DNA of 26,061 nucleotides from Candidatus Zhuqueibacterota bacterium 4484_188 (lineage in GTDB: Bacteria > Calditrichota > Calditrichia > RBG-13-44-9). Shown piece after piece: positions 1,925 through 22,182 of the stretch (position 1 is its first letter; every line of letters begins with the position of its first letter). Where the stretch lies: assembly GCA_002049825.1 (NCBI GenBank), contig MVCZ01000001.1, positions 1-26,061 of the forward strand, written 5' to 3'. A model generated the notes under the pieces. It was not told the origin of the DNA and searched no databases. It saw only the letters and a list, made by a program, of their open reading frames with translations. Made by a program: the position numbers and the translations under genes.

Positions 1925-2000
1925 CTCCCTCCAGAAATCTTTTACCTGCTGCAGTTCGCTCGGTATTTTTCGATGTACTGTTGAATTTTGCCGGTCATTT

Positions 2001-2840: not shown

Positions 2841-3840
2841 ATCCTAATGAAAACCGCTGTGTTTGCTCTAAAATTCCGTAGTCAGCCCATGCATAGTCAA
2901 AATGCAGAGAATAACCGGAGAGGTGGAAGCGCAGGCCAGCGCCCAGCACCAATCCGCCCTCGGCATCCTGCAAAAACATGTTTCGGTATCCGCTGCGCAG
3001 AGCAATATTGTCAAACAAAAGCCACTCGGCACCTATGTTCAGGCTTTCGCCGTTATCATTCGGGTGAATCGCATCTAATACCATAAGAAATTGGTTGGAT
3101 TCACTGAATTTGAGCGGAACGGAAAAACCGACCCTGAACATGGTGGGAAGCGGAAAAAACTCGGTGCGCAACTGCGCCGGTAACTGGTCATTGTCGCCAT
3201 GTTTTGCCTGATTAAAATCGTAATCGATGTACAAATCCCTTCCGTCATAGGCTGCCTGGGGACCAAAATTGGAGATACTGGCACCCATGGTGGGTCCCTG
3301 CGGTGACAATTGGTACTGCACCCCAAGATTCAGTGAAACGTCGGTCAGGCTGCTATGCCAGATGGATTCGCGCAGGTAGTTCAATTGCATTCCTACTGAA
3401 ATGCGATCGGTGAGCATGCGTCCGATGCCCAATCCCATGGAAAAAGCGGTAACGGTGTAGCGTTCCCCGGTGCCCAGCGGCTGGGATACCGTTCGCACAT
3501 CAATCTCGCCGGAATTTAGTGCAGTCACCTGCATGAGCAGCGTTCCCAGAGATGGTACCCTGATTGCCGCACTACCGAAATTGTACTGAATATCCGCCAG
3601 CCATTTGCTGTAGGTAAACTGCACCGACGATTTTTTCAGACGACCCAGACTGGCCGGGTTAAAAAAAGCGGTAGCCGCGGCACCACTCAGCGATGCGCCG
3701 GCGTTTCCTAATGCCGCCGTCCGGGCGTCCGGTTCTATTTTCAGCACCTGCCCGATGGTGGTGCCGGTTTTGCTTTGTCCCAATGCCAGTGTCACCATAT
3801 AAAGAAGGAGTATCAAAAAAATGAAAAAAGGGTTTCGCAT
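2830..3840 (-). CDS. PorV/PorQ-family (UPF0164-like) outer-membrane beta-barrel, cassette copy 2
   Basis: 336 aa with signal peptide. N-terminal GQVLKIEPDARTAALGNAG...AFFNPASL resembles the PorV family signature, followed by amphipathic beta-strands and a C-terminal RFSLGFGF with terminal Phe. Confidence 0.85.
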   Translation of the reverse strand: MRNPFFIFLILLLYMVTLALGQSKTGTTIGQVLKIEPDARTAALGNAGASLSGAAATAFFNPASLGRLKKSSVQFTYSKWLADIQYNFGSAAIRVPSLGTLLMQVTALNSGEIDVRTVSQPLGTGERYTVTAFSMGLGIGRMLTDRISVGMQLNYLRESIWHSSLTDVSLNLGVQYQLSPQGPTMGASISNFGPQAAYDGRDLYIDYDFNQAKHGDNDQLPAQLRTEFFPLPTMFRVGFSVPLKFSESNQFLMVLDAIHPNDNGESLNIGAEWLLFDNIALRSGYRNMFLQDAEGGLVLGAGLRFHLSGYSLHFDYAWADYGILEQTQRFSLGFGF

Positions 3841-4096: not shown

Positions 4097-7000
4097 CTAC
4101 TTAATAATGGCAAATTTGCCAATATAGGTACCCACCTCCTTGCTATCCACATGGTAGAGATACAAACCGGGCGCCACCTCCAGGTTATCTTTGGTTCGCA
4201 AATCCCAGGCAACAAAGCCCTGGTTTGTTGAACCGTTTTGGTGAAGCGTCTGCACTAATTCGCCGTTAATGGTAAAAATCCGAATAGTGCACTGGCGGGG
4301 TAAATTGCGAAATTCAATCCGCCGTTCGCCCCTGCCGGAAACAGCAAACCGCTGCGGTTCGAAACTGGCAGCGCCGACGTAGGGATTGGGCACCACGTAC
4401 GGCTTTTCTAAAAACGCTGATTTTGCCTTTTGCGGATCCACAAATTGCCCGGTAGTTTTGAAGGAAAAAATATCTTTCCGGCCCAGCGGCACCTGCAGTT
4501 TCAGATGATACTCATCGCCATCTGCCGGCGGCTGAATGAGAATACCCATCATGCCGGTTGTGTCCAAGCTGATATTCCAGGTGGAACGCGGTACAGTCGG
4601 TTTGTCGCGCGTGTAGGTCAGCACCTCGATGTAATCTCCCGGCTGGCTGAGGGTGCCGGAAGTGTCGGTGTCCAGAAAACGGAAATCCAGTTGCAAATTG
4701 CCGGAATCTCCTTTGGCAATAATTTTGAATTTTGCCGGTTTGGCGTACAGCGGACCGATTCCGGCAATAGAGGTGTCCAACGGCTGATTGCTGAAAATAA
4801 TTTGCAGGTTTGCCGGAAAACCGGGCCGCCGCAGGTTGGTGGGCAGCGCCCTGGCATAGCGCACTTTCAGCCGGGCGTTGGTCGGGCTGCCGGCAGTAAA
4901 ACCGGAAATGAGCGTGTCGATTGAGACGACCTCAGGTGTAAAAATGTTGGGCAGAAGCCCCAGCCCCACAGGTCCGCCGCCAGAGCCGTCAAAAACCCGG
5001 CCGGTGGTAAACAGTGTGTCAGCCGTAGTAACATCGTACAATCCGTAGCTGGAAGCGCGCACGCTGTCTTCTAGGCTCTCAAAATGAATCTCAAAAGTGT
5101 GGTGGTCAGGCACCAGCTCCGGGTTTATTACCTCTACTTCCACGGTGCCAGTGCCGCTTCCGGCAATGTGTTCCACCGCGCTTGCCTGCGCCGGCACATA
5201 GCCCAATACCGGTCGGTTTGGGCGCACTTCCACTGCATTTTTGGGAAAAATAATACCGCCGCGCAGGGTCCGGCTGACCGCAATAGCATTTTCTGAAGGG
5301 TAAATTTCCAGTGAGTCCGAACCTTTGTCGTAAGCGGTGACCGCGTAATAGTAGAGCTGGCCGTTAGTGGCTGTGGTGTCTTTGAAAGTGTGCACAATGC
5401 CGGTATTTTCTCCCAGGAAGTAGGCAACGCCCTCCACGGTGGTTTGCGAAAAACCTTCGATATCGTCAATTAAGTCAAACTGGGCCAGCGGTCGCCCGTG
5501 TCCGATGGGTCCCGAGCCGGTGCCGGTGGTAATGACCTGCGGGTCGAGAAAAGTCGGGTCGGTACTGCGGTAAATGCGATAGCCTTCGAAATCGTTGGTG
5601 CTGGTCACCGGGTCAAAGGCGCGTTCGGCACGGTCGTCCCAGCTCAGGGTCACATAACCGTCACCCGTTGAAGCCTGCAGAGTGGGCATGGGCGGCGGGA
5701 CGGCAAACTGGTAATTAGCTTTATAAATTTGCTGAACCACCTTGGTGGTGTTGCGCAGTTCGCGCAAATCTTTTCCAAACCCCAGTGCCAGGCTAAAGCG
5801 CTCGGTGCGACCAGCCTCCAGTTTAAAGGGACCGGAGGCAAAAAAGAATCCGATATTGTAATTTTGCACCAGCGGCGGATCGAATGCCGAATCCTGGGAG
5901 GTGAATTTTTCGTACAGGCGCCGGGGCCACTGCCGACCGTCGTCAAAAAATACGATGTCATCAATGGCTGTGGAAGGCGAACCGGCACCGGCTCGAATAC
6001 GATTCATCTTAAAACCGGTCAGCCCAATCTGGTCGGATTCGTCCACATCCGTTTTATCGAAATTGGGTTCACCGCGGGTCGGCTTGCCGTCTTTCTCGCC
6101 GCTGTCTTTCTGATTCTCTTTTGAAGCAAAAACGCCATCGGCACCGGTGTCGTTAAATTCCGCCACCCAATCCATGTCTTCGTCACCGGTCCACCAGGAG
6201 CCGGCACGGTAAGCCGGGCGACGTTCCAACGGTCCAAAGAAATTTTTAAATTTCTGCATGTCGTAATGGGATTCCACGTAGGTGCGAATGGCATCCTGCC
6301 CATCGATGAGTTGCCCCGGACCGCTATCCCGCCGTTCATCGGTTACCCCGTTTTCATCGTTATCAATACCGTCAAAGGGATTGCCGGGGGTTTCAATGTA
6401 GGAATAACCTAAATAACCTGTGGGTCCCTGCACGCCATTTCCGTTTTTGTCCCAGGTGTACACCAGGTTCAGCCCGGCTTCTTTATCGAAAAAAGCATTG
6501 TCGTCGTCCGATTCCGGGATGCCATCCATCCCAATCGCCGAACCGCCAACGCCGGAATCCATGTAGAGTCCGAAAATAATGTTGTCGTCGTAAGTAGTGG
6601 TTCCTTCGTTGGTAATATCGTAGTGCCAGAAAATCACGTTTCCGGCCTGCGGATTTGCCCACTGGAAACCACGCTGTTCAATGCGCAGCCCAAGACCGTG
6701 CCGGGTGCTGTCACGGTAGTCGGAATGAAACAGCCAAGCGTCGTAAAAATCGTCGTCATACACAATAAAACTTTCCTGGTCAGCGCCAGGCGCTTTCCCG
6801 AAATAGCCATTCCAGGAACCGCTCCAGCCAGGGTCATCGGGATCGTTCAGTTTATCAATCCACTGGTCGGGCCAGGTGCGCGGGTCGTTGCTCATGGCAA
6901 CCGAACGTCCCTGGTTAATGACTGGGTCGGGCTGAAAATATCCCGGCCGCGGTTCAAAACGCATCACCCGGTTGTAGAAGGGGCTTATGCCCTGGCGCTC

Positions 7001-7357
7001 CCGGTAGCCGGTTTCCATAATGTAAGCGGGTGTACCGTCTTCCTGGATAATTTTTACCAGCACGAATGGAGTAATGCCGTCGCTGTAGTTCTCGCCGGAG
7101 CCCTTGGGCACTTCTACCGAGTGAAACACGCTGAAATCAACGCGCAGCGGGTCCGGCGGATAATCGCCCACCATGCCGTAATTGTAAAAAACGGTGCGGA
7201 TGCGGTTGGCGTCGTGCATGCCTTCCCGTTCAGCATCTACCCGCCCGCGAAGTTCCGGGGGAACCACCGGCTGCAGGTCCTGTGTCCAGCCATCGGCTGT
7301 TAAAACCAGTGCAAGTGCAACTGCCAGAAAAATATTTTTCAGATAAACAAATCGCAT
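4097..7357 (-). CDS. Uncharacterised ~1086-aa secreted protein (Asp-rich DxDxNG motif, FN3-like domain, atypical T9SS/FlgD-Ig-like CTD), cassette copy 2
   Basis: The ORF track starts at TTG 7372; ATG 7357 (MRFVYLKNIFLAVALALVLTADGWTQ) gives a cleaner signal peptide. Contains GIDNDENGVTDE, an FN3-like segment PPPMPTL..GDGYVTLSWD..FEGYRIYRS..YYYAVTAYD, and a C-terminal VVPNPY..RIEFRNLP..TIRIFTINGELVQTL..WDLRTKDNLEVAPGLYLYHV..GKFAIIK. Alignable by eye with 13409..16549. Confidence 0.9.
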   Translation of the reverse strand: MRFVYLKNIFLAVALALVLTADGWTQDLQPVVPPELRGRVDAEREGMHDANRIRTVFYNYGMVGDYPPDPLRVDFSVFHSVEVPKGSGENYSDGITPFVLVKIIQEDGTPAYIMETGYRERQGISPFYNRVMRFEPRPGYFQPDPVINQGRSVAMSNDPRTWPDQWIDKLNDPDDPGWSGSWNGYFGKAPGADQESFIVYDDDFYDAWLFHSDYRDSTRHGLGLRIEQRGFQWANPQAGNVIFWHYDITNEGTTTYDDNIIFGLYMDSGVGGSAIGMDGIPESDDDNAFFDKEAGLNLVYTWDKNGNGVQGPTGYLGYSYIETPGNPFDGIDNDENGVTDERRDSGPGQLIDGQDAIRTYVESHYDMQKFKNFFGPLERRPAYRAGSWWTGDEDMDWVAEFNDTGADGVFASKENQKDSGEKDGKPTRGEPNFDKTDVDESDQIGLTGFKMNRIRAGAGSPSTAIDDIVFFDDGRQWPRRLYEKFTSQDSAFDPPLVQNYNIGFFFASGPFKLEAGRTERFSLALGFGKDLRELRNTTKVVQQIYKANYQFAVPPPMPTLQASTGDGYVTLSWDDRAERAFDPVTSTNDFEGYRIYRSTDPTFLDPQVITTGTGSGPIGHGRPLAQFDLIDDIEGFSQTTVEGVAYFLGENTGIVHTFKDTTATNGQLYYYAVTAYDKGSDSLEIYPSENAIAVSRTLRGGIIFPKNAVEVRPNRPVLGYVPAQASAVEHIAGSGTGTVEVEVINPELVPDHHTFEIHFESLEDSVRASSYGLYDVTTADTLFTTGRVFDGSGGGPVGLGLLPNIFTPEVVSIDTLISGFTAGSPTNARLKVRYARALPTNLRRPGFPANLQIIFSNQPLDTSIAGIGPLYAKPAKFKIIAKGDSGNLQLDFRFLDTDTSGTLSQPGDYIEVLTYTRDKPTVPRSTWNISLDTTGMMGILIQPPADGDEYHLKLQVPLGRKDIFSFKTTGQFVDPQKAKSAFLEKPYVVPNPYVGAASFEPQRFAVSGRGERRIEFRNLPRQCTIRIFTINGELVQTLHQNGSTNQGFVAWDLRTKDNLEVAPGLYLYHVDSKEVGTYIGKFAIIK

Positions 7358-7421
7358 TTTAAAACATTCCAATTCTTCTCTTACATTTTATCATTTATCA
7401 AACGGTAGCTTTTTCTGTCAT

Positions 7422-10082
7422 TTATTTCTTTTCTACCGTGAATCCGATTTCGATCCGGCGCGGTTCATAAAATCGTGCCGGGTTCAGCAGTTGTACCCGG
7501 TCGGTGGCGGGAAACTGGGAATAATCGGGACTTCCGGTAGTGGCGAACACAAATCCGTTCACAAAATGGGTATTTAACAGGTTGAACACCCGCAGGTACA
7601 GGCCGCCTTTCAGCGGTCCCCATGCCACATATTTTTCCGCCCGGACATCCAACAGGGCGTAGGACGATTTGAGCCCTGAATTGGTTTCCAGGTCTGCGCC
7701 ATAGCCGGAACCGATTTGCGGCGTGTAGGGCTGTCCGCTTCCCAGCCGGAAGATAGCGCTGAGAGTGTAATTGTTGGCAACTGCGAAAATGGCAGTAGCG
7801 TTCAGGGTGTGCCGCTGATCCCAGTTAAAGGGAATGTCACGCGGGCGGGGGTCTTTGCCACTGGCAGCGCGGATGGCAGTTTCGCGTGGATCGCTGGAGT
7901 TGCCGCGGGCAAACTGCAGGGTGTAATCCAGCGTGGTGCTGATCGGTCCGATGGCCCGCTGGTCGAAGGCAATGGTGGTGCCGTACACACTGCCGAAATC
8001 TACATTGGTAAAGCGGGCATATTCGGCAGCCGCGTAGGTGGTGACAAATTCGGTTCCCAGCAAATCCCGGATATCTTTGTAGAAGAAGGACAGGTCTAAC
8101 CCCAGGAAACTGGTCAGCGCCTGTTTCAAACCGAATTCATACTGGATGGTGCGTTCCGGTTTCAGGTCCGGGTTGCCCATGACGCCGTAACTTATGCCCC
8201 CCTCCTGCAACTGGTCGAGCACCGAATAGTCGGCATTGTTGTACAGCAGTCCCAAACCGGGCATCTGGTAGAAATGCCCGTAGGAAAAGTAGAGCGATGC
8301 CGCGGCAGACAGCGGGAAACTAAAGCCGAGACGCGGTGCCAGCGCTGATTTAATGATGGTTTTTCGCAGCACTGATTTTGGGGCACCGGCAATGGCATTC
8401 GCCGGATTTTGCAAATCGTCGGGCACCCGCGCATTGGCGTCAAAATATTCCAGACGCACACCGGCACGCAGCACCAGGTCTTTCCACTCCACCCGGTTCT
8501 GCAAATAGGCATTAAACTGACGCGGGTAATAGGTCTGCACGCCCGGCTGCCGCGGAAGGTTCTGCCTCGGCTGAAGAATTTGCACGCCGCCTACTGTTGT
8601 GGGCACAATGAAACCTGGGCTGCCAAAGGATATCTCCGACGCCTGAAATTCAACCCCGCTCTCCACCAGGTTCGAACGGTTCACCTGCCAGGTCGCTGCC
8701 CCTTTCACAATGCCGTTGTTGGATTTCTGGATGAACCGGCTTAAATCCACCCCCTGCACCACTGATCCATGTTCGTAATTCGGATCGCCCAACGGCTGTC
8801 CGGCTTCCAAATAACGCGGATCAAATAAATCCTCGTAGGCATAATCCGAGTAGTCAAAATAGTTTTGGCGCAGGTTTAATTTGTAAAACAATGTACGGGA
8901 AATGGTATGCGTTATGTCCAGCCCATGGGATACCGAAAATGTTTTTTGTTTAGTAATTCCCTGCGGGTTCAGCCGAAACGCATGGTTGTAGCGGGTTTGG
9001 CGTACATCATTAAGCAACGCCTGATAACTGAGCTGAACTTTTTCCAGCGATTGGTTGCTCAGTTTAAACTGCCCGCTCCACTCCCGCCACGTTTGCATGG
9101 TCACCAGTTTTCCATCGCCGGTAGGACGAAATTCCCTTGTTTCGAAATCGCTGGAATCGGTGGGCAGGAAGCGCCGTTCACCGAAAAGGTAGCCGTCGTT
9201 CAGATAGCGCCTGGCGCTGAGAAAATAGGTGGTGTTGGGAATAAACAGCGGTCCGCTGAGCATAAGCTGGTAATTCCGGATGGCAGCAGGATTGAAAGAA
9301 TTGTTGTGCGGGTAGCGTTTGGAATCTGTGGTATAAAAGTCTCCGCTGTACACTTCGCTGCGCCAGTCAAATCTATCAGAACCGCTGCGTAACACCGCAT
9401 TCACTACCCCGGACATCGCCTGCCCGTATTTGGCGTCAAAAGTGCCGCTGATAACCTGCACTTCTTCTAAAACCGAGCGATCCAGTTGCAGGGTAGAAGA
9501 ATTGTCGTAAGGGTTGTTCACCGTGACACCATCGACCTGATATTGAACCTCGCCGATTCGTCCTCCCCGGAAATGACCATCGATCACCCCGGCTTGCAGG
9601 TTGACAATCTCGGTTAAATTCTGTACCGGCAGCACTTCAATTTCTTCTTTCCCGACTGTGGAAACCGAACTGGTCTGGTTAAATTCCACAATGGGACGGC
9701 TTGCGGTTACCACCACGGTTTCGCCCTCAATCGCTGCGCTTTTCAGCCTCACATTCAGATTGGTGGTGCGGTCAGCATTTACCCGAAATTTTTCGACCAC
9801 CTGTGTCCGGTAACCGACGTAGGAAAACCGCACTGTGTAAACTCCGGCGCGAACATTCAGGATCAGATAAAATCCGTCCGTATCGGTGGCGGCGCCCAGG
9901 TTGGTTCCCTCCAACTCGATGTTTACCCCAATTAAGGGATCGCCATCGGTGGAAGTGACCACGCCGGCCAGCTTTCCGGTGGACTGGCTTCTGCCGGTGG
10001 TTACCAGAAGCACCAGAAACAGCAGTGCCGGAAACCAATATTTCCGGTAAATAGTAGAAATTTGTGACCACACACTTTGCAT
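7422..10082 (-). CDS. TonB-dependent receptor with N-terminal carboxypeptidase-regulatory-like domain, cassette copy 2
   Basis: 886 aa with signal peptide. TGKLAGVVT..DGDPLIGVNI..GAATDTDGFYLILNV..GVYTVRFSYVGY N-domain; plug GHFRGGRIGEVQYQVDG and VISGTFDAKYGQAMSGVVN; barrel motifs PRLGFSFP, YFSYGHFYQ, GNPDLKPERT, VFNLLN. Confidence 0.9.
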   Translation of the reverse strand: MQSVWSQISTIYRKYWFPALLFLVLLVTTGRSQSTGKLAGVVTSTDGDPLIGVNIELEGTNLGAATDTDGFYLILNVRAGVYTVRFSYVGYRTQVVEKFRVNADRTTNLNVRLKSAAIEGETVVVTASRPIVEFNQTSSVSTVGKEEIEVLPVQNLTEIVNLQAGVIDGHFRGGRIGEVQYQVDGVTVNNPYDNSSTLQLDRSVLEEVQVISGTFDAKYGQAMSGVVNAVLRSGSDRFDWRSEVYSGDFYTTDSKRYPHNNSFNPAAIRNYQLMLSGPLFIPNTTYFLSARRYLNDGYLFGERRFLPTDSSDFETREFRPTGDGKLVTMQTWREWSGQFKLSNQSLEKVQLSYQALLNDVRQTRYNHAFRLNPQGITKQKTFSVSHGLDITHTISRTLFYKLNLRQNYFDYSDYAYEDLFDPRYLEAGQPLGDPNYEHGSVVQGVDLSRFIQKSNNGIVKGAATWQVNRSNLVESGVEFQASEISFGSPGFIVPTTVGGVQILQPRQNLPRQPGVQTYYPRQFNAYLQNRVEWKDLVLRAGVRLEYFDANARVPDDLQNPANAIAGAPKSVLRKTIIKSALAPRLGFSFPLSAAASLYFSYGHFYQMPGLGLLYNNADYSVLDQLQEGGISYGVMGNPDLKPERTIQYEFGLKQALTSFLGLDLSFFYKDIRDLLGTEFVTTYAAAEYARFTNVDFGSVYGTTIAFDQRAIGPISTTLDYTLQFARGNSSDPRETAIRAASGKDPRPRDIPFNWDQRHTLNATAIFAVANNYTLSAIFRLGSGQPYTPQIGSGYGADLETNSGLKSSYALLDVRAEKYVAWGPLKGGLYLRVFNLLNTHFVNGFVFATTGSPDYSQFPATDRVQLLNPARFYEPRRIEIGFTVEKK

Positions 10083-12082: not shown

Positions 12083-12346
12083 TTTTCTTCTCCCTATACT
12101 TCTTTTAAGATTTTAAAATGGTAATTCTATACCCGATTTATTTTTTTGTTTCAAAAAGATCAAGTTATAGAAAATTCCCGGAATGAGCCCGCCACGATAA
12201 AATACTCATTTTCCAAATTCGAATTATGCCAAATGTTTGTTGAAAAAATGAAGCAGGTAATCCTCTACTCCGTTTCAGCACCTCAACATTTTGTTTCTCT
12301 GTAATCGGTCACTTCTCCGGAACTCTGTTTGTTGCCACGCCGACCG

Positions 12347-12358
12347 CTCTTACACCAC
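12347..12358. repeat. 12-bp direct repeat CTCTTACACCAC, copy 2
   Basis: Identical to 10150-10161; begins a few bp past the PorV-family stop codon at 12364. Confidence 0.7.
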
Positions 12359-12363
12359 ACTAC

Positions 12364-13398
12364 CTAAAAATGAATCTCCAGCGAAAACCGGTGGGTATTG
12401 GTTAAGCGCCCCCAGTCGGCATAAGCATAATCAATAAAAAAAGGCATCCGGGCGGTCAGGTAATAAACAAAACCGGCGCCCAGGGTTAGTCCCTTCTCGG
12501 ACTGGTCCTCGAACAACGCCTGGTAGCCACTTCGCAGGAAGAACCGCTTTCTGAAGCCATACTCTAAACCAAAACTCAGGTTTTCGGTATTATCGTTGGG
12601 ATGCCGGGCTTCTACCGTGGCAGTAATCTGGGTCATCTCCCCTTGCACCAGGTTTGCCGCCGCGCCAAAACGGAAGAGCAAGGGCAAATCCCAGCGGTCG
12701 GTTTGCAGGTTGGCAAAAATGTTTTCGTTGTCCCCCCACTGGTTGGGATCAAAATCGTAGTTTACAAAAATGTCCTTGCCGGCATATTGCAATTTCGGTC
12801 CGAAATTGGAAATGCTCATCCCCAGCACCAGCCAATCGAAATCGGTTTTGAATAGAATACCGACATCGAAGGCGATGGTGGAAGCAGTCATGTGCCAGAT
12901 TTGTTGCCGCACATATTTTGCCGTAAGCCCCAGGGCAAAGCGGTCGGTCAGAGCGCGGGCAAAACTAAGACCGAGCGACATATCCATTGCACTGAAAAAT
13001 TCCCCGGTGCCTTCCGGTTCTAATTCAGAACGAACCTTCATATCCGGCATGGAAAGGGAAGTAAAAGAAAAACCAAATGTGCCAACGCTTCCGGTACGGA
13101 TCACCGCCGCAGCAAAGTCGAAATTAGTGCCTGCCAACCAATTGGTGTGCACGAAACTCACCGCGCCGGTCGGCTGAATATGGGTTAAGCCGGCCGGATT
13201 CCAATACAGCGAAGTAGCATCGTTAGCCGCAGCGACACAGGCGCCCCCCATACCGATAGCGCGTGAACCAACCGGTATTTTCAGGAACTGTGCTGCGGTA
13301 GTGCCGCTTTTGGTTAATCCACTGAAAATTCCGGCAACTACGGAACAACTCAACAGAACAAGTAGAATCAAAGTAGACTGTATGGTAACACCTTTCAT
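12364..13398 (-). CDS. PorV/PorQ-family (UPF0164-like) outer-membrane beta-barrel, cassette copy 1
   Basis: 344 aa with signal peptide; AAQFLKIPVGSRAIGMGGA..ANDATSLYWNPAGL signature; ends RFSLEIHF. Starts 10 bp after the stop of the upstream large protein. Confidence 0.9.
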   Translation of the reverse strand: MKGVTIQSTLILLVLLSCSVVAGIFSGLTKSGTTAAQFLKIPVGSRAIGMGGACVAAANDATSLYWNPAGLTHIQPTGAVSFVHTNWLAGTNFDFAAAVIRTGSVGTFGFSFTSLSMPDMKVRSELEPEGTGEFFSAMDMSLGLSFARALTDRFALGLTAKYVRQQIWHMTASTIAFDVGILFKTDFDWLVLGMSISNFGPKLQYAGKDIFVNYDFDPNQWGDNENIFANLQTDRWDLPLLFRFGAAANLVQGEMTQITATVEARHPNDNTENLSFGLEYGFRKRFFLRSGYQALFEDQSEKGLTLGAGFVYYLTARMPFFIDYAYADWGRLTNTHRFSLEIHF

Positions 13399-13408
13399 AG
13401 CAAACTTC

Positions 13409-16400
13409 TCATTTAATCAGTGCGAACCGTCCGATTTTTTCGCCAATATCCGGGGCATCGACGTGGAAGATGTAAACACCCGGCGCAATATCGAGTCTGT
13501 CTTTGGTGGTTAAATCCCAGGATTCCGAACCGTCCAGCATGTCGGAATTGTGTTCCAGGGTTTTCACATGATCGCCGCTGATAGTAAAAATGCGAATAGT
13601 ACAGCGCTGCGGCAGGTGAATAAAAAAGATTCTCCGCTCTCCTCTACCGGTAGAAAGCAACCGTCGTGGTTCCCAGCGTGCCGCCACCACGTAGGGGTTG
13701 GGTACCACCGCAATTTTGTCCAGATCGGTTTTTGCTACCTGGCGGTCTATTTTTGCCGCCCGGCTGGTGAGGCGATAGACATCAGCACTACGGAAAGGGG
13801 TTTTTATCTGGATGTGCAACACATCACCGTCTTTTGGTAGCACGGGTGTCGCTCCGCCATAAGGCTCTAAAAAATGCACCCGCCAGACTTCCCGCGGAAA
13901 ATTGCCATCCATAACCAGAATACGAATGTATTCGGTTGAGTCATTTAATGGAGCCGAGATGGTACTGTCGCGGGTCGATTCTCGCGGTTCCTCAAATGCA
14001 AAGCGCGCTTTTTTGTTTTCATAGAGGTCCCACACCGTAAAGTTCACCACAAATCCCTGACTGAAAAAGCGGCTGGTGTCTGGCTCACCAAAACGAATTT
14101 CGTAACTGGAAGGATAGCCCGGACGCCGGTGAGGAAAATGGTAGCGGTGCTCGACCTTAATGGGCAAATTGGCATCGCCTTTAGTCCAGCCGGAATTTTG
14201 CCCGTCCCAATCGATACTGTCGGTAAAAACCAGCAGTCGCATGCCGTCGAACACCGGGTTGGTGTCTTCGCCGCGCACACTGAAAGAATTGCGTACAATG
14301 GTGTCCGGCTGCGAGGGATCAGTCACATCTGCCATGTGATACATAATGGTATCCGGATGGGTGGTGTCATCAAAACTGACCTCGAAGATGCGGTTTTCCT
14401 GCACCTGCAACGGATCCAACACATCAATCCACAGGTTGCCGGTAGCAAATCCGGAAATATGCTCAATGGAATCCTTTACCCCGGCTTGGCGGAATCCCGC
14501 TGCCGGCGCCTGTGGGGTAACTGCCACAGTGTTTTTGTCCAGCCGTAAATTGCCATTGATGTCCTGCACAATTACCCGGCTGCACTCCGAGGGATACATG
14601 CTGGAATCCGGATCGCCCCGGTCGTAGGAAACCACCGCGTAATAGTAGGTTTTTCCGTTCATCACATCGGTGTCAGTCCAGGAGTGTTTTAAGCCTTTGT
14701 TGTCGCCCATGTAAATTTTCAGTCCCTGGAAATCCAGCGGGAAAAAGCCTTCCACATTATTCCGCAGATCAAACTGGGCAGCCGGCTTCAGGAAAGTTGG
14801 TTCGCCAAACGCATTGGTTACAATGCGGGCATCCAAAAATCCCGGATCGCTGCTTTTGTAAATTTTATAGCCCTCAAAATCGTAGGGTGGATTGGAGAAA
14901 GGATCGTAGCTGCTTTCTGCCACATCGTCCCAGTAGATGGTCACTTTTTTATCGCCGGGGACCGCCCACACTTTGGATTTCTCCGGTGGTCGGGCAAAAT
15001 TATAATTGTTATTGTAAATTTTCTGAACTGTTTTTTTGTTGCGCCGGATGTCCGCCAGGTTATCGCCGAACACCAGGCAAACTGAGAAACGTTCCGTTTG
15101 CAGTGTTTTCAGGGGAAAAAGTCCGGAACCATAGAGAAAGGCAATATTATCGTTGCCAAGCTGATCGTCGAAATGGCTGTAGGAAACACGATCCCAGATG
15201 TCTTTATCCCGGCGGAATTCAACACCGGAACCGATACTAAAAACATCGAAAGCAGTTAAACCAATTTGATCGGATTCATCCTTGTCAGTCGCGTCAAAAT
15301 TGGGTTCACCGGGGGTGGGCACACCGTCGCCTTCGCCCATGTCTCCGGTGCCGGCAAGCCCGTCGGCGCCAACATCGTCACGTTCCGGGTCCCAATCCAG
15401 GTCGTTGTCAATCAAATCGCTGCGGTCTTCATCAATCATTTCGTCAATGCGACCATCGCCATTATTATCCTGTCCGTCGGCATATTTGAAACCAATGTGA
15501 AAGGCTGCCTCGTCAATCAGGCCGTTTCCATTATCATCAATCCCATTCTCCGGCAGTTCACCCAGAATCATGTTCGCGGTAATCACCGGGCTTCCGCTTT
15601 CGCCGTCCTCGTCATCGTCAATACCGTTAAAGGGATTTCCCGGGCTCTCCAGAAAAGCGTAGCCGCACCAACCGGTTGGTCCCCAACCGCCCTGCCCCAA
15701 ACCATTTGTGTCCCATGAATAGGTAATATCATTTCCCAGGTCAAAGGAAGCGTTATCGTCATTGGAATCGTGCTGACCGCCAACACCCACATCTACATAC
15801 ATGCCGAAAATCATTTTGGGGTAATTGGTAGTGCTCTCGTTTGTAATATCGTAGTGCCAGAAAATCAAGTCTTCAGATTGCACATTAGACCACTGAAATC
15901 CCCGCACGCCAACTTTCAGCCCTAACCCCCTTCTGCTATGGTCTGTGGAATCGGGATAAAAATCCTGCCCATCATCTGAATCGTCGTCCATGACGAAGTA
16001 GCTTTCCTGGTCGGCATTGGTGCGCCTTCCGAAGTAACCGTTCCAGAAACCGTTCCAGCTGGCATCCTTATCTGCCCATGAACCAGGCCAGGAAATCGGG
16101 TCGTCGTTCAGGGCAATCTTATCGGCGTTTGGATTGGCATAGCCCGGGCGCGGCTGCCATCCGCGTTCCACACCTTCGGGCGAAACATCCATGCGCTCCC
16201 GGTAACCAGCTTCGCAAATATATAGAGTATCCCCATTATGATTGACTGTCTGTGTAACCACAATCGGGGTGATTCCGTCCATGTAAGAATGACCGGATCC
16301 CCGTGGCCACACGCCGGAAGGCTCGCGTCCCCACCAGGCAACTTCACCGAAATTGTAAAACAGGGTTTCCACCAGGTTGCCGTTATGAATGCCCACTTTG

Positions 16401-16549
16401 CGGTATTTTCGGTTGCCGCGCATCTCTTTGGGCACATACACCTGTGGGATTACGTTGCTTGCAAAAAGAATCAGCGCCAGGAGAATGAGCCATTTTCTGA
16501 CCGGTAGCTTGGTGAAAAGTGTAAATTTTTTTGCTTCTGAATCTGACAT
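13409..16549 (-). CDS. Uncharacterised 1046-aa secreted protein (several Asp-rich DxNxNG/DxDxDG repeats, FN3-like domain, atypical T9SS/FlgD-Ig-like CTD), cassette copy 1
   Basis: Signal peptide; repeats GIDDDEDGE, GIDDNGNGLIDE, GQDNNGDGRIDE; FN3-like VWAVPGDKKVTIYWD..FEGYKIYKS..YYYAVVSYD; C-terminal VVPNPY..LPQRCTIRIFTISGDHVKTL..WDLTTKDRLDIAPGVYIFHV..GRFALIK. Confidence 0.9.
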   Translation of the reverse strand: MSDSEAKKFTLFTKLPVRKWLILLALILFASNVIPQVYVPKEMRGNRKYRKVGIHNGNLVETLFYNFGEVAWWGREPSGVWPRGSGHSYMDGITPIVVTQTVNHNGDTLYICEAGYRERMDVSPEGVERGWQPRPGYANPNADKIALNDDPISWPGSWADKDASWNGFWNGYFGRRTNADQESYFVMDDDSDDGQDFYPDSTDHSRRGLGLKVGVRGFQWSNVQSEDLIFWHYDITNESTTNYPKMIFGMYVDVGVGGQHDSNDDNASFDLGNDITYSWDTNGLGQGGWGPTGWCGYAFLESPGNPFNGIDDDEDGESGSPVITANMILGELPENGIDDNGNGLIDEAAFHIGFKYADGQDNNGDGRIDEMIDEDRSDLIDNDLDWDPERDDVGADGLAGTGDMGEGDGVPTPGEPNFDATDKDESDQIGLTAFDVFSIGSGVEFRRDKDIWDRVSYSHFDDQLGNDNIAFLYGSGLFPLKTLQTERFSVCLVFGDNLADIRRNKKTVQKIYNNNYNFARPPEKSKVWAVPGDKKVTIYWDDVAESSYDPFSNPPYDFEGYKIYKSSDPGFLDARIVTNAFGEPTFLKPAAQFDLRNNVEGFFPLDFQGLKIYMGDNKGLKHSWTDTDVMNGKTYYYAVVSYDRGDPDSSMYPSECSRVIVQDINGNLRLDKNTVAVTPQAPAAGFRQAGVKDSIEHISGFATGNLWIDVLDPLQVQENRIFEVSFDDTTHPDTIMYHMADVTDPSQPDTIVRNSFSVRGEDTNPVFDGMRLLVFTDSIDWDGQNSGWTKGDANLPIKVEHRYHFPHRRPGYPSSYEIRFGEPDTSRFFSQGFVVNFTVWDLYENKKARFAFEEPRESTRDSTISAPLNDSTEYIRILVMDGNFPREVWRVHFLEPYGGATPVLPKDGDVLHIQIKTPFRSADVYRLTSRAAKIDRQVAKTDLDKIAVVPNPYVVAARWEPRRLLSTGRGERRIFFIHLPQRCTIRIFTISGDHVKTLEHNSDMLDGSESWDLTTKDRLDIAPGVYIFHVDAPDIGEKIGRFALIK

Positions 16550-16591
16550 CGCTAAAATCTTGCCTTTTTGATTTCGGTAAAAGAAAATTGC

Positions 16592-19240
16592 TTACAAATC
16601 CAGGCGGAGGCCGAAAAGCACTTTCCGCGGTTCGGAATAGAATTCCGGGCGTTGCAGCCACTCTCCCAAGGTGTTGACATGAGCGTTTCGTTCCCCGGTG
16701 TAATGGCTGACCAAGGAATACCCAGCGCGACCGGTATCCTGGTACACATCCAGTTCATTGCGCCGGTCGAACAGATTATACACTTTCAGGAAGAGTTCAA
16801 ACCGTTGTCCCCAGAGCGGGAGAATTTTTGACAGGCGTAAATCCACGTTGTAATTAAACGGTTTGCGTCCGCTGTTTTCGAAAGTCGTTTCCAGACTCTG
16901 GATGGCCGGGGTATAAGGCAAACCGCTCTGGAACTGCCCGATTATTCCGGCAGTCAGAATTTTGGGATGACTGTAGGAAAGCGATAAATTGACAGTATGG
17001 GTTTGATCCCAGTTTAAAGGGACAACCTGGATATTGCTTTTCTTGGGCGGTTCGGATTGTTGGTTGTAAAATTCCTGATTGGGATCGGAAGCATTGCCCT
17101 CCGCTACCTGGAAGGTGTAATCGAAAGAAACGGTCACGTGGTCCGACGCTGTAGGTCGTTTATTGAGCGAGAAGGTGATCCCGCGAATATTTCCGTAATC
17201 GCGGTTCTCATAACGGGCATAGCGGTCGCCGCCGCCGGCATTGTATATTTTGGTACCTAACAGATTCCGCGCGTCTTTGTAAAAACCGGTTACGTCAATC
17301 CCCACCTGTGGGAAAATTACCTGCTGAATGCCGAATTCGTAAATGATGGTTGTTTGCGGTTTCAAATCGGCATTGCCCAACAAAGTACTCAGTCCGCCAG
17401 GATTGACCGCAAAACGGGGATTTTGGTAGAGAAACTCATAAGGCGGTATCTGGAAAAAATGTCCGTAGGAAGTGTGGATGACCCCGGCTGAGGAAATTGG
17501 AAATGCCAGACCGATGCGCGGGCTGAACTGATGTTTTACCGAAGCTTGGTTAAAAGCGCTGTCGGGATCGTTCAGAAAGCGGGGCACCACACCGCGGGAA
17601 TCGAAGTAATCGTAGCGCAAACCGATGTTAACGGTCATGTTATTTAACTCAATTTTGTCCTGCAGGTAAGCAGACGCCTCCACCGCATTGTGATGATATT
17701 TACCGCTGTTTAAAAAAGAAAATGTCGAGAAAATACCTCCGTTAGGAATCCCGTGGTAATTTGCCTCAAAATTATTTTCTTCAATCCGGGTGTGCTTGAT
17801 TTCAATTCCGGATTTTAATTGATGGATTTTGCTCACTTGCGAGGTAATGTCGAATTTCCCATTGTTCACTGTGGAGGATCGATTCTCATGAATCATGTTG
17901 CTGCCACCGGTTAAAAAACTAAAAGCATCCTCACGGGTCATCAATAGTTCCGGGTTCACATACCGGGGATCATTGGGGTCTTCGTACAAATAGGATTTAA
18001 ACTGGTAGTCGAAATGCGACAGCTTGAGGGTATAAAACGTCCTGGGCGACAGAGTGTGATTCAGGTTCAACATATTGCTGATGCCGTAGTTATAATTGGT
18101 TTTATCACCGTCCGGGTTCAGGTGGAAAAGATGGTTGTAAAACCGCCTGGAAAAATTGTTCCCCAACAGGCTGTAACTGAGCTTTGCGGTATTAGAAAGC
18201 TTGAAGACCAATTTCAGGTTTCCGTAATACTCCCGGCTGAAATTCATGGGCACCGGTTGATTATCGCCGGTCTGTTCGATATAGACACCATCCTGTTCAA
18301 AATGTGCTGAATCCGAAGGATTGTATCTGCGCACGCCGTAGAGCCAGCCGTCGTTATAAAAGTTGCGCAGGGAGAGATAATAACCCACCCCTTTTTTTAT
18401 AAGAGGCAGCGGGCCGGTAATATAAAACTGAAGATTATAAATATCTACCGGTTTTACGGTGTTTATATTAAAGAATAAAGAAGATTGGGAACTCAGGTAA
18501 TCCCCGGAATAAACCGTTAGCCCAGTTCTGGTCTGATCTTCCGGGTCTTTGGTCACAACTTCCACAATGCCGGACATTACCTGCCCATATTCCGCATTGA
18601 AGGTACCACTGATTACTTTCAGTTCCTGAATGTTATTCTGGTCGATATCGATGGCTTTTTTTCCCGAAAATGGATCGGTCACCGAAACGCCATCCACCAG
18701 GTAAGCGATTTCGCTGGAGCGTCCGCCGCGGATGTGCAGCTCACCGTTTTTATCTGCCACCACCCCGGCTTGCAAAACCAGCAGGTCCTGCAGGTTCTCC
18801 ACCGGGATATTTTCAATTTCGTCCGACGAAACCGAAGATGCGGTTGCGGTAAGGTCTTTCTGAATAATCGGGCGTTCAGCTTCCACGGTAATGATTTCTC
18901 CCAGCTCCAGCGAAGCCGGTTGCAGGTGGAAATCCACCCGGGTGCTGCGGTCAGCTTGAACGGCGACTTGTGTCATCCGCACATCCTGGTAACCCAACAT
19001 GCTGGCGGTAAGGATGTAGGTGCCTGGCGGAAGATTCAGGATTAAAAAATCGCCATCGACATCGGAAGCCGCACCAAGATTCGTGCCTTCGATAATCACA
19101 TTGGCACCGGGCAGTGGTTCACCCGAAGAAGAATCAGTTATCTTACCGGCTATCTTTCCGGTCTGACCGGCAAATACCCATCCCGAGCAGAGGAAAACAA
19201 TGAGAAAAAGTATGTCAAAAAATCTGAGACTATTTTTCAT
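16592..19240 (-). CDS. TonB-dependent receptor with N-terminal carboxypeptidase-regulatory-like domain, cassette copy 1
   Basis: 882 aa with signal peptide. GQTGKIAGKITD..GEPLPGANV..GAASDVDG..PGTY..SMLGY; plug LHIRGGRSSEIAYLVDG and VISGTFNAEYGQVMSGIV; barrel motifs FSPRIGLAFP, SYGHFFQIP, GNADLKPQTT, VYNLFD. Confidence 0.92.
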   Translation of the reverse strand: MKNSLRFFDILFLIVFLCSGWVFAGQTGKIAGKITDSSSGEPLPGANVIIEGTNLGAASDVDGDFLILNLPPGTYILTASMLGYQDVRMTQVAVQADRSTRVDFHLQPASLELGEIITVEAERPIIQKDLTATASSVSSDEIENIPVENLQDLLVLQAGVVADKNGELHIRGGRSSEIAYLVDGVSVTDPFSGKKAIDIDQNNIQELKVISGTFNAEYGQVMSGIVEVVTKDPEDQTRTGLTVYSGDYLSSQSSLFFNINTVKPVDIYNLQFYITGPLPLIKKGVGYYLSLRNFYNDGWLYGVRRYNPSDSAHFEQDGVYIEQTGDNQPVPMNFSREYYGNLKLVFKLSNTAKLSYSLLGNNFSRRFYNHLFHLNPDGDKTNYNYGISNMLNLNHTLSPRTFYTLKLSHFDYQFKSYLYEDPNDPRYVNPELLMTREDAFSFLTGGSNMIHENRSSTVNNGKFDITSQVSKIHQLKSGIEIKHTRIEENNFEANYHGIPNGGIFSTFSFLNSGKYHHNAVEASAYLQDKIELNNMTVNIGLRYDYFDSRGVVPRFLNDPDSAFNQASVKHQFSPRIGLAFPISSAGVIHTSYGHFFQIPPYEFLYQNPRFAVNPGGLSTLLGNADLKPQTTIIYEFGIQQVIFPQVGIDVTGFYKDARNLLGTKIYNAGGGDRYARYENRDYGNIRGITFSLNKRPTASDHVTVSFDYTFQVAEGNASDPNQEFYNQQSEPPKKSNIQVVPLNWDQTHTVNLSLSYSHPKILTAGIIGQFQSGLPYTPAIQSLETTFENSGRKPFNYNVDLRLSKILPLWGQRFELFLKVYNLFDRRNELDVYQDTGRAGYSLVSHYTGERNAHVNTLGEWLQRPEFYSEPRKVLFGLRLDL

Positions 19241-19279
19241 GAATTTTCAGTGCACAACACTTATTTGGAAATTATAATG

Positions 19280-19310
19280 AAGGAGGACATCTTTAGAAAA
19301 TATCCCCCTT
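19280..19310 (-). terminator. Intercistronic stem-loop downstream of the CBM9-like gene (mRNA stabiliser or partial terminator)
   Basis: Minus-strand RNA AAGGGGGAUAU-UUUCUAAAG-AUGUCCUCCUU forms an 11-bp stem with two G-U pairs. Those pairs form only on the transcribed strand. No U-tract follows. Confidence 0.55.
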
Positions 19311-19337
19311 GAACAGAACTAACCTCATGACCGGTTC

Positions 19338-21107
19338 TTACCGCATCAGCATCATTTTCCTGGTTTTGCTGAAATTGGGAGTGGTCATTTTGTAGAAATA
19401 TAACCCACTGGCAACCTGGTTACCATGCTTATCCATTCCGTTCCAGGTGATGGTATGGCTGCCGGCCTGTTGTTTCCCATCGAAGAGCGTCGCAATTTTG
19501 CTACCCAAAATATTGTAAATTTCAATCGTGACCGGAGATACGGTTGGTAACGCATACTGAATAGAAGTAGTCGGGTTGAATGGATTTGGGTAGTTTTGCG
19601 CCAGCTCGAAATGATCGATAACGCCGGCGTTGTTCCCGGAGCCGATATCGGTCGTTTGGCTGGAAAGCACCACCTCGCGATACATGTAGTATTTTTCGAA
19701 GTTCAGGTCCGCCCATTGTGTTCCCCACCATTGCGGGGCATAATCTGAGACATGCAGCTGGAATGTGTCTGCAGAACTATAATCAAGATCCCAGATCACC
19801 GCGCTGAGCTTCACCGTGTCGCCATTGCTGTAACCGAACATATCGGTGTGGACCAACACTTCCAGCGAATAACCGGCATCTGGACCGCCGGTTTCGGTAT
19901 GCGTCACGGTTCCTGGTGGTTCGTAAGACGCACCTTCTGCCCCGCCAGTGGGTACATTACTATTTAACTGGAATTCAGCACCGGCGCCAACCGTATTGCC
20001 AAAATACATATTTTTTATTTCCATCCGATCTCCCGGACCCGGTATCACTCCTTTTAAAGTCATCCAGAGGAACAGACCGTCGGCTTCCCATCCCGGAGAC
20101 CACTCACAAACCGAAGAATCGTTGGACGTAACACCGATATAGAGATCGGTTCCATTATGGGCAAATTTAACTGTGGCAACACTTTGGTCGGTGTATTCAT
20201 TCAGTGTGTCTCCCCACTGCATGTAAAATCCGCCGGAACTGGTAGTCGAATTCTTATAAATCTGGACATAATCCGCATCGCTCCAGAAACTTTCGTTTAA
20301 TTGCCCATCGAGGGTGAAAGCCTCAGTTGTTTTAATGGCAATTTTGGTGGGCGGATCAGCCAGCCGTAAAATGCGCATATCGGGTCCCCATTCGCTGCCC
20401 CACCAGGCTTTGTAGTAGGCACCAACCGCTCCCCAGGGATCCATATTATCCACATATCCGTCGGGGTCGAAAATATTCATCAGCACCGGAATATCGGTGT
20501 CATTTTCGGTGTAGCCCAAATGATCCAGGTGAATGACCATTTCTGCTGTGTAGCCGGAATCCACTTGGGAAGTATCGTTCACAATGGTGGCAGGGTGTTT
20601 CCAGGCGGCTCCCTGACCGGACCCCGGGTACAGTGCCGGTTCTTCATAATGAATATCGGGATTCACTCCAGAGAGATTAAAATAGAGCTTATACTCCACA
20701 TCAATACCATTGGCGTCCTTGATCTTCATGAACAGCCCATCGCCTTCCCAGCTCGAACCAAATTTACCTACCGATTGGTCATCAGACTGCAATGAGATAT
20801 AGAGATCCATTCCATAATGCAGAATCCGGACAATCGTAGTGGTTGTGTCGGTGTAAGTTGGTTTTACTTCGATTCCCTGAGTCACATCATATTCCACATC
20901 ACCAGGCTTGAAATTCGCCCGATACACCAGGTGGTCGAAACGCCGCTGCCAATCGGTTTCGGTGAGTGCACCATCAATGGTAATGGGATTTTCCGCTGAC
21001 TGGATTTGCAGTAACGGGGAGTCAACATGGCTGTTGCCGCTGATTCCATTACCAGTAAATGTCAGCACCAATACTATTGCTGCCATTACAGTAATTAGTT
21101 GCTTCAT
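19338..21107 (-). CDS. T9SS type-A/FlgD-Ig sorting-domain protein with two CBM9/DOMON-like sugar-binding modules, cassette copy 1
   Basis: 589 aa, strong SD (AAGGAGG), signal peptide. Modules ITIDGALTETDW..SGYTAEMVIHL and FTLDGQLNESFW..GYSLEVLVH. C-terminus QNYPNPFNPTT..IYNILGSKIATL..TWNGMDKHGNQVASGLYFYKM..RKMMLMR. Confidence 0.85.
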   Translation of the reverse strand: MKQLITVMAAIVLVLTFTGNGISGNSHVDSPLLQIQSAENPITIDGALTETDWQRRFDHLVYRANFKPGDVEYDVTQGIEVKPTYTDTTTTIVRILHYGMDLYISLQSDDQSVGKFGSSWEGDGLFMKIKDANGIDVEYKLYFNLSGVNPDIHYEEPALYPGSGQGAAWKHPATIVNDTSQVDSGYTAEMVIHLDHLGYTENDTDIPVLMNIFDPDGYVDNMDPWGAVGAYYKAWWGSEWGPDMRILRLADPPTKIAIKTTEAFTLDGQLNESFWSDADYVQIYKNSTTSSGGFYMQWGDTLNEYTDQSVATVKFAHNGTDLYIGVTSNDSSVCEWSPGWEADGLFLWMTLKGVIPGPGDRMEIKNMYFGNTVGAGAEFQLNSNVPTGGAEGASYEPPGTVTHTETGGPDAGYSLEVLVHTDMFGYSNGDTVKLSAVIWDLDYSSADTFQLHVSDYAPQWWGTQWADLNFEKYYMYREVVLSSQTTDIGSGNNAGVIDHFELAQNYPNPFNPTTSIQYALPTVSPVTIEIYNILGSKIATLFDGKQQAGSHTITWNGMDKHGNQVASGLYFYKMTTPNFSKTRKMMLMR

Positions 21108-21144
21108 GACTAAGTCCTCCTTTTAATGAATTAGGTGAAATGAA

Positions 21145-22182
21145 TTAGAAAAAATTGTGCTGACTGTTGTTATTATCACACCCGCATGATCGTCCGATCA
21201 TCAGACCGGTAGTTAAATCTTCGCGATACGGTTTTTTGAATGTCTCTGGGTCCTCGATCATTTTAAACAGATAACGAATAGCTTTGCTTCCCAATTCAAA
21301 AATCGGTACATGCATGGTGGTGAGCCGGGGAGTGAGCAGTTTGCTCAGGTAAATATCGTCAAAGCCCACCACAGCCACATCATGAGGGATACTCAGATTA
21401 ACTTCACGCGCCGCCTGGTAAATCCCAACAGCCATCATATCGTTAGCAGCAAAAATTGCTTCGGGTTTTTCTTTCTGACTCATCAGTCGCCCAAAACCGT
21501 AATAACCGGATTGGGCGGTAAAGCTCCCCTGTACAATCAGATTTTCTTTCAACGGAATACTATACTGGGCCAAGGCATCGCGAAATCCGCGATACCGTTC
21601 GGCGGCATCCCAGTTGCCTTCCGGGCCAAGAATCATGCCAATGTTTTTATACCCATGTTTTTGAATCAGGTGTTCTACTATCGTGAAAGCGCCCTGATAA
21701 TTATCAATATTAAAACTCACTACGTTCTCTATGTTCCGACTGATATTCATCAAAACAACCGGTCGTTTGCTGTTACGAATAAGTTCAGCAACCTCGTTTT
21801 GAAGCTGCGGAACCATCAGGATCATGCCATCCACCCTTCCACTTCCCATAAATTCGACCAGTGTTTCGATAATATCACGGCGACTGTGAGAACTGGAAAT
21901 CATCACGTATTTGTTAGCACGATATGCTTCTTCATCCACCCCATGAATAATATCCATAAAGAATTCATCATTGAGTTCAGGTAAAATGACACCGATTGTA
22001 TCCGTTTTTCTTTTGGACAACCCCCGGGCAAAGGGATGCGGTCTATAATGGTATTCCCGGGCTAATTCCTGAATCCGGCGGCGCGTTTCTGGTTTCACCG
22101 ACCCACTGGAATTCAGTGCCCGCGAGACAGTGGCGATAGAGACACCGGCTTTTTTGGCTATTTCATTGATATTAATTTTCAT
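21145..22182 (-). CDS. LacI-family transcriptional regulator
   Basis: 345 aa; HTH INEIAKKAGVSIATVSRALN, hinge ARGL, sugar-binding domain motifs AIFAANDMMAVG, VAVVGFDD, LTTMH; C-terminal RSCGC. Confidence 0.97.
   Translation of the reverse strand: MKININEIAKKAGVSIATVSRALNSSGSVKPETRRRIQELAREYHYRPHPFARGLSKRKTDTIGVILPELNDEFFMDIIHGVDEEAYRANKYVMISSSHSRRDIIETLVEFMGSGRVDGMILMVPQLQNEVAELIRNSKRPVVLMNISRNIENVVSFNIDNYQGAFTIVEHLIQKHGYKNIGMILGPEGNWDAAERYRGFRDALAQYSIPLKENLIVQGSFTAQSGYYGFGRLMSQKEKPEAIFAANDMMAVGIYQAAREVNLSIPHDVAVVGFDDIYLSKLLTPRLTTMHVPIFELGSKAIRYLFKMIEDPETFKKPYREDLTTGLMIGRSCGCDNNNSQHNFF

Follow-up and report, generated by a model that had tools for sequence, protein, structure and literature searches.

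Known tail–carrier pairs and the locus under study

To date, carriers have been assigned to the C-terminal tails of type IX secretion system (T9SS) cargo by tail type: according to a statement from 2025, all type A tails use PorV, and private carriers exist only for type B (PMC12618676). In solved complexes, the conserved C-terminal basic residue of type A tails contacts the loops of PorV (PMC10994853). The tails of PorU and PorZ are left uncleaved and stay on PorV and PorQ, respectively, PorQ having been proposed to collect PorZ at Sov (PMC10947112), and a 2023 review put forward the hypothesis that cognate PorV-like barrels shield a tail from cleavage (PMC10202324). Here, a 26,061-nucleotide stretch from Candidatus Zhuqueibacterota bacterium 4484_188 (contig C121 of a 1.74 Mb genome that is 62% complete), referred to below as the window, was analyzed for two large secreted proteins, each of which ends in an extended T9SS-type C-terminal domain (the extended tail) and is encoded next to a barrel of the PorV/PorQ family. 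With moderate confidence, we favor as the most likely mechanism that the tail stays uncleaved and the barrel serves as its private carrier and anchor.

All genes concerned lie on the minus strand, as judged by translation; a plus-strand reading of 13409–13723 and 4097–4411 gave nonsense with stop codons and was rejected. The extended tail of large secreted protein 1 (13409–16549, 1046 aa, with a Sec signal and without a lipobox) occupies 13409–13723, i.e., residues 943–1046 and the stop codon. An alignment of 25 tails places the insert loop that characterizes it between strand 1 (VVPNP) and strand 2 (RIFF), at 13634–13687 (residues ~955–972, WEPxR..GRGER). The second copy (4097–4411, 104 codons and the stop) forms residues 988–1091 of large secreted protein 2 (4097–7372), which has 1091 aa when read from a TTG, with an ATG a few codons inside. 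Barrel 1 (12364–13398, 344 aa) starts 10 nt past the stop of protein 1, and barrel 2 (336 aa) lies at 2830–3840.

Four described systems resemble this arrangement. The PorZ-PorQ and PorU-PorV pairs of the Porphyromonas gingivalis attachment complex (5m11, 6za2; PMC10947112, PMC5562754) also include a large surface protein with a seven-strand C-terminal T9SS signal. Their tails are known to remain uncleaved, docked on a PorV-family barrel of 14 strands, whereas tail retention is a proposal here. These pairs are single housekeeping components, whereas 7–27 pairs are found per genome here; the barrels here are neither PorV nor PorQ equivalogs, the cargo belongs to an unrelated, unannotated family encoded after a TonB-dependent receptor, and PorZ lacks the extra conserved loop carried by the tail. 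Type B tails with PorP/SprF, such as Flavobacterium johnsoniae SprB-SprF (PMC12618676, PMC9143113), likewise combine a variant tail with its own carrier or anchor barrel in many pairs per genome, and a probably uncleaved tail would be a further likeness. However, the families differ: TIGR04131 finds no match here, and the partner belongs to NF033709, not to PorP/SprF. Type A tails (TIGR04183/PF18962), which travel on the housekeeping PorV, share with the extended tail the fold, the PNP motif at strand 1 and the C-terminal basic residue, and the cores cross-match; yet the extended tail falls under both curated cut-offs, contains an insert of 18–25 residues, shows much stronger conservation and comes with a private barrel. 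Finally, in the SusC/SusD (RagA/RagB) systems of Bacteroidota, a large protein is also encoded directly after a SusC-like receptor in a sugar-utilization context, which is indicated here by a LacI regulator and CBM9. In contrast to SusD, the large proteins here show neither the SusD fold nor a lipoprotein signal, and their attachment would depend on tail and barrel instead of a lipid anchor.

Linkage of extended tails to barrel genes

A scan with one genome per species yielded 571 confirmed loci, and gene neighborhoods were taken from the best 80 of these, representing 80 species. Among these 80, the barrel gene is directly downstream of the tail-bearing gene in 76 loci and directly upstream in two, while one locus has none and one has no room for it; a PorV/PorQ-family neighbor is present in 78 of the 79 informative loci. 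Of the 68 loci that leave enough space on the upstream side, 63 have the C-terminus of a TonB receptor there. A tail-bearing gene followed by a barrel gene is also the porU-porV order of Bacteroidota. Within the genome of the window, a PorV-family gene lies directly downstream of six of eight extended tails and of none of 16 ordinary tails; the remaining two extended tails belong to the first of two tandem tail-bearing genes and to a gene at a contig edge. The same preference is seen in the closed genomes G012 and G018, where a barrel adjoins 27 of 31 extended tails as against 2 of ~121 ordinary ones (Fisher p = 2e-23, with the ordinary-tail count read by hand and the related genomes not being independent). 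The original prediction, made from the two copies in the window, was that such tails would preferentially lie next to a PorV-family gene, and it is borne out at this scale. Across 25 relatives, each genome contains 18–37 PorV-family matches and 7–27 extended tails, and the order of receptor, tail-bearing protein and barrel is complete in at least eight loci of G012, with middle proteins of 640–1177 aa.

There is an alternative explanation: the large proteins might be ordinary type A cargo carried by the housekeeping PorV, and the FadL-like barrel might serve the TonB receptor, as a channel or assembly factor, without ever touching the tail. PorV-family proteins are FadL homologues, and BamG has a role outside the T9SS (PMC12578637); protein P0004 shows a weak BamG match (25.9 bits). 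At one locus (L121, G012 2471100–2487500), moreover, the barrel directly follows the receptor and not the tail-bearing gene, an order that a receptor-serving barrel fits equally. Against this explanation, in 76 of 79 loci it is the tail-bearing gene, rather than the receptor, to which the barrel gene is attached, and the ordinary tails rarely adjoin barrels in either comparison above, whereas extended tails do. We consider it quite unlikely, also in view of the predicted complex and the distance correlation described below. The L121 locus itself encodes a 748-aa protein, an ordinary-tail protein and, ~3.6 kb on, the TonB receptor and the PorV-family barrel. The extended tail of the 748-aa protein is broken by a further insertion, and the same arrangement is present in G018 (1455671 / 1463327).

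In the window, two copies of a four-gene cassette follow a LacI-type regulator; in each, a CBM9 protein bearing a classic type A tail is joined by a TonB-dependent receptor, one of the large proteins and a barrel. Receptor 1 (16592–19240, 882 aa) lies 42 nt upstream of protein 1 and contains the Pfam domains CarboxypepD_reg, Plug and TonB_dep_Rec_b-barrel; receptor 2 (7422–10082, 886 aa) was likewise assigned by Pfam. A third triad of receptor, large protein and barrel occurs elsewhere in this genome (contig C154, 857–7664), where each gene is broken up over two frames (273+639 aa, 441+577 aa and 232+91 aa), as either pseudogenes or assembly frameshifts.

Neither Pfam nor NCBIfam has a family for the whole large proteins or for nine paralogues in G012. 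In the 90% clusters, their family exceeds 2231 members, every one of which bears the name hypothetical; the sources include KSB1, Calditrichia, Ignavibacteria, Marinimicrobia and Delongbacteria. With the tail profile, 244 representative clusters are retrieved at E ≤ 1e-30 and 4281 when the threshold is relaxed to E ≤ 1e-10, and the match invariably lies at the extreme C-terminus. A Foldseek search with the full-length model of protein 1 returned mostly strings of FN3 domains and poor overlaps with GH94 N-domains, and therefore does not reveal what the body does; PorZ came second in that search, but its TM-scores were very low (0.10 and 0.13). All carriers of the extended tail belong to a single superfamily of TonB-receptor-linked proteins, so that tail and cargo are confounded.

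Class and fold of the tail and its partner barrels

The two tails of the window align without gaps at 59 of 104 identical positions, the figure that the original prediction had estimated by hand. As it also stated, the tails are better conserved than the sequence upstream: only 22 of the 104 residues ahead of them are identical, residues 701–942 have 62 of 242 identities, and the large proteins overall share 38% identity. In a set of 50 homologues, mean pairwise column identity reaches 0.62 in the tail as against 0.36 in residues 800–942, the tail equaling the best-conserved N-terminal parts of the protein and lying far above the preceding domain. The insert is the best-conserved stretch of the tail, at 0.67. 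The two CBM9 paralogues, which have ordinary tails, agree at 33 of 80 positions in the tail and at 140 of 465 in the body. The motifs listed at the outset (PNP, the GRGERR insert, TIRIFTI, WDL, APGxY and a terminal K) were all found; K1046 is invariant in alignment A2, and K or R occupies that position throughout the 25-tail alignment A1. The insert, which follows the PNP strand and whose length differs among paralogues, indeed has no counterpart in the CBM9 tails, as had been claimed: the spacing from PNP to 'LP' is ~26 residues in extended tails and ~12 in CBM9 tails. Moreover, a profile built from 118 tails of the family matches eight proteins of the genome over its full length, whereas its matches to ordinary tails are confined to positions ~44–103, i.e., the sandwich core.

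Profile scores set the tail apart from the curated classes. Against TIGR04183, the type A model, the two tails score 12.7 and 19.1 bits, below the cut-off of 23, whereas the CBM9 proteins of the window pass with 34.2 and 45.6 bits. With PF18962, one copy gives no match and the other 15.4 bits against a cut-off of 27. The type B model TIGR04131 has zero matches to the tail, even at E values up to 10, and the tail stays below threshold with FlgD_ig. In this scoring, which the original prediction had proposed as a check, the tail thus does not register as an ordinary type A domain. The best NCBIfam matches of the tail are the tails within the PorZ and PorU models; the second copy scores 27.7 bits with PorZ and 21.0 with PorU, as against its 19.1 bits with TIGR04183. 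When the 25-tail profile was compared with all PDB sequences, only PorZ (5m11, E 0.012) and PorU (6za2, E 0.015) were retrieved.

AlphaFold2 (AF2) models the tail as a seven-strand β-sandwich, with a predicted local distance difference test score (pLDDT) of 81.6 for the whole of protein 1 and 80.9 for the tail alone; the insert is a low-confidence loop in both models (pLDDT below 50). This fold and its position at the very end of the protein, together with a conserved basic residue close to the terminus, agree with the structure of type A tails. With the tail model, the top Foldseek match was PorZ (E 1.2e-4, TMq 0.66) and the next two were PorU, while the cleaved cargo tails solved in the translocon ranked lower (RemZ 15, NucA 24). 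FlgD-like and further Ig-like folds were also among the matches. By sequence profile and by model, the closest solved relatives of the tail appear to be those of PorZ and PorU, through weak similarities. The original prediction of a further class of tail is therefore upheld in part: the sub-threshold type A scores and the lack of any type B match agree with it, but the core is a type-A-like sandwich with PorZ and PorU tails as its nearest solved relatives, and the tail is a distinct subclass, not a wholly further class. Because these relatives are the PorZ and PorU tails, the principle of a tail retained on a PorV-family barrel is already known, from PorZ-PorQ and PorU-PorV, and also from type B tails with PorP. 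The new elements are the distinct tail subclass, the distinct barrel subfamily, the many pairs per genome, the link to TonB receptors and the wide spread over phyla.

The FlgD-like and Ig-like matches, together with scores under the curated type A and type B thresholds, would also suit a T9SS-independent function, with the sandwich as a generic Ig/FlgD-like docking domain on a protein that reaches the surface by another route. However, the domain is always extreme C-terminal and ends in a conserved Lys/Arg, its best matches are T9SS tails, and SprA is present in all eight module-bearing genomes tested. A 14-strand barrel of the FadL/PorV kind is also too small to export a protein of 1000 residues. 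This explanation is regarded as highly improbable. The genome of the window contains a SprA fragment (contig C89) and PorU (contig C155), which reaches 548 bits with neighboring pieces and exceeds the cut-off; both proteins are full length in G012 and G018. SprA was also found in five of five module genomes with distant labels, namely WOR-3, Stahlbacteria, and metagenome-assembled genomes labeled Caldisericaceae, Acidobacteriota and Lentisphaeria. The GldM model (TIGR03517) gave zero matches, controls included, and was uninformative.

Both barrels belong to the PorV/PorQ subfamily NF033709 (cut-off 90), with 244.3 bits for barrel 1 and 185.7 for barrel 2. They fall short of the PorV equivalog NF033710 (100.9 and 64.9 bits, cut-off 250) and of the PorQ equivalog NF033711 (94.8 and 89.2 bits, cut-off 220), and are likewise far under the cut-off of the PorV2 equivalog. 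The barrel profile matches the solved F. johnsoniae PorV at E 1.8e-27. The two barrels are 37% identical and have a long, extracellular-type loop in common (residues ~205–232), in agreement with the earlier description of two PorV paralogs sharing such a loop. Since the true PorV of G012 is a separate gene (252 bits, cut-off 250), the partner barrels are additional paralogues and not the housekeeping carrier.

The idea that the length of the insert co-varies with the barrel loop was rejected, as the partners of the long-insert tails on contig C13 lack the loop, while those of the short-insert tails on C26 and C28 have it. The barrel loop goes with the type of protein body: it was seen only in barrels paired with large-family proteins and is missing from the true PorV and from the barrels of ~600–720-aa cargo. 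Because of this restriction, the loop may contact the cargo body rather than the tail. On contig C13 (3045–10592, minus strand), two ~610-aa paralogues in tandem come after a TonB receptor and before one short PorV-family barrel (261-aa frame); both paralogues end in an extended tail with a longer, different insert, and the two cargo proteins may share the single barrel.

Predicted tail–barrel binding and the proposed anchoring

Complex prediction for barrel 1, minus its signal peptide, and a 108-residue tail gave an ipSAE of 0.90 in three runs, as compared with 0.00 for the best of three controls; in a calibration, 58 of 80 solved complexes and 2 of 110 mismatched pairs scored that high. The predicted interface comprises strand 1 of the tail, a face of the sandwich and the C-terminal residues. 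In addition, tail and barrel distances correlate when the protein body is controlled for (partial r 0.34, p 0.001, 63 pairs). The complex model supports binding of the tail to the barrel, although it does not show it, and the proposal of a cognate, co-encoded PorV-family partner gains from near-universal adjacency, from a correlation beyond the protein body and from the predicted complex. The latter two also argue against a barrel that serves the receptor alone.

In the favored mechanism, the large protein would be exported by Sec and brought by its C-terminal sandwich to the type IX translocon (SprA), where the barrel encoded directly downstream, and not the housekeeping PorV, would collect it. 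The PorU sortase would leave the tail on, and the tail would stay docked on the extracellular face of the barrel, just as PorQ keeps the PorZ tail and PorV that of PorU. Docked in this way, the large protein would be fixed to the outer membrane next to the TonB-dependent receptor encoded with it, and it would probably be the surface capture partner of that receptor. The pick-up by the private barrel at the translocon, the absence of tail cleavage and the physical association of the large protein with the receptor are inferred. Candidate roles of the insert are protection from PorU, choice of the carrier or contact with a third partner.

Alternatively, the private barrel could be only a dedicated shuttle, which would replace PorV at the translocon in the way that PorP/SprF proteins serve type B cargo; PorU would then cleave the tail, and the protein would be linked to lipopolysaccharide (LPS) or released. 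A PorU sortase above the cut-off is present, the tail core weakly matches type A models and ends in a conserved basic residue, and the predicted binding of tail to barrel suits a transient shuttle as well as an anchor. However, the nearest relatives of the tail are two retained tails, not cleaved ones, and the conservation of the whole tail relative to the preceding domain (0.62 vs 0.36) goes beyond the needs of a disposable signal. So many separate shuttles per genome (10–25) would also be hard to justify if the end state were the same LPS anchor. A shuttle-only role is accordingly rated as rather unlikely, though as the more credible of the alternatives.

Several points, besides the gene order at L121, weigh against the carrier-and-anchor mechanism. 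The sequence matches to PorZ and PorU are weak (E about 0.01). The conserved insert, which defines the subclass, lies outside the confident predicted interface and is modeled with low confidence. The complex job relied on the alignments of this analysis and its calibration is only rough, and the three controls include neither a non-cognate nor an ordinary-tail pair; since solved PorV–tail complexes exist (8gl8 and related), the score of 0.90 may partly be memory. The distance correlation is weak support, because neighboring genes share history and co-duplication gives parallel trees without binding.

A broader proposal, which we rate slightly below an even chance, is that bacteria of the Fibrobacteres–Chlorobi–Bacteroidetes (FCB) group outside Bacteroidia build TonB-receptor complexes without lipoproteins. 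Their T9SS-delivered partners would be locked by PorZ-like uncleaved tails onto private PorV/PorQ-type barrels as a third cognate tail-carrier family, with the insert setting the carrier or shielding the tail from the sortase. The literature on PorV-like and PorQ-like paralogues and on the T9SS in Ignavibacteria yielded no description of the module, and nothing usable was found in that on proteomics of cultured carriers. If the anchoring is true, cognate tail-carrier pairs would gain a third group of very large size, the PorZ-PorQ oddity would become a general anchoring principle, and the escape of a tail from the sortase would have a testable explanation. Abundant environmental lineages in which SusD is mostly lacking, such as Calditrichota, KSB1, Ignavibacteria and Marinimicrobia, would be seen to have a surface partner for their TonB importers, and more than 2000 'hypothetical' proteins would receive a name. 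Because cultured carriers exist (Melioribacter, Caldithrix), the question is directly testable.

Other combinations of PorV-family barrels with large proteins were observed in these genomes. On contig C117 (7019–12621, minus strand), a 1234-aa protein that NCBIfam assigns to no family precedes a 633-aa fusion of a PorV/PorQ barrel (120.6 bits) with TPR repeats at its C-terminus, and in G018 a 647-aa PorV-family frame (452409–453639) comes after a 5390-aa frame with an ordinary tail core. In G012 (12300–22000), a putative HExxH metalloprotease of the MXAN_6640 family with a near-ordinary tail (134–3193, minus strand) lies directly upstream of a 448-aa barrel, whose best match is PorQ (182.7 bits, cut-off 220); the two may form another cognate pair of a different kind. 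Finally, a second, divergent PorU-like gene was found in G018 (4646165–4651575) and G012 (2011910–2014309), where it scores 229–256 bits and misses the cut-off. The G018 copy precedes a weak PorV-family frame, with which it may constitute a second sortase–barrel pair.

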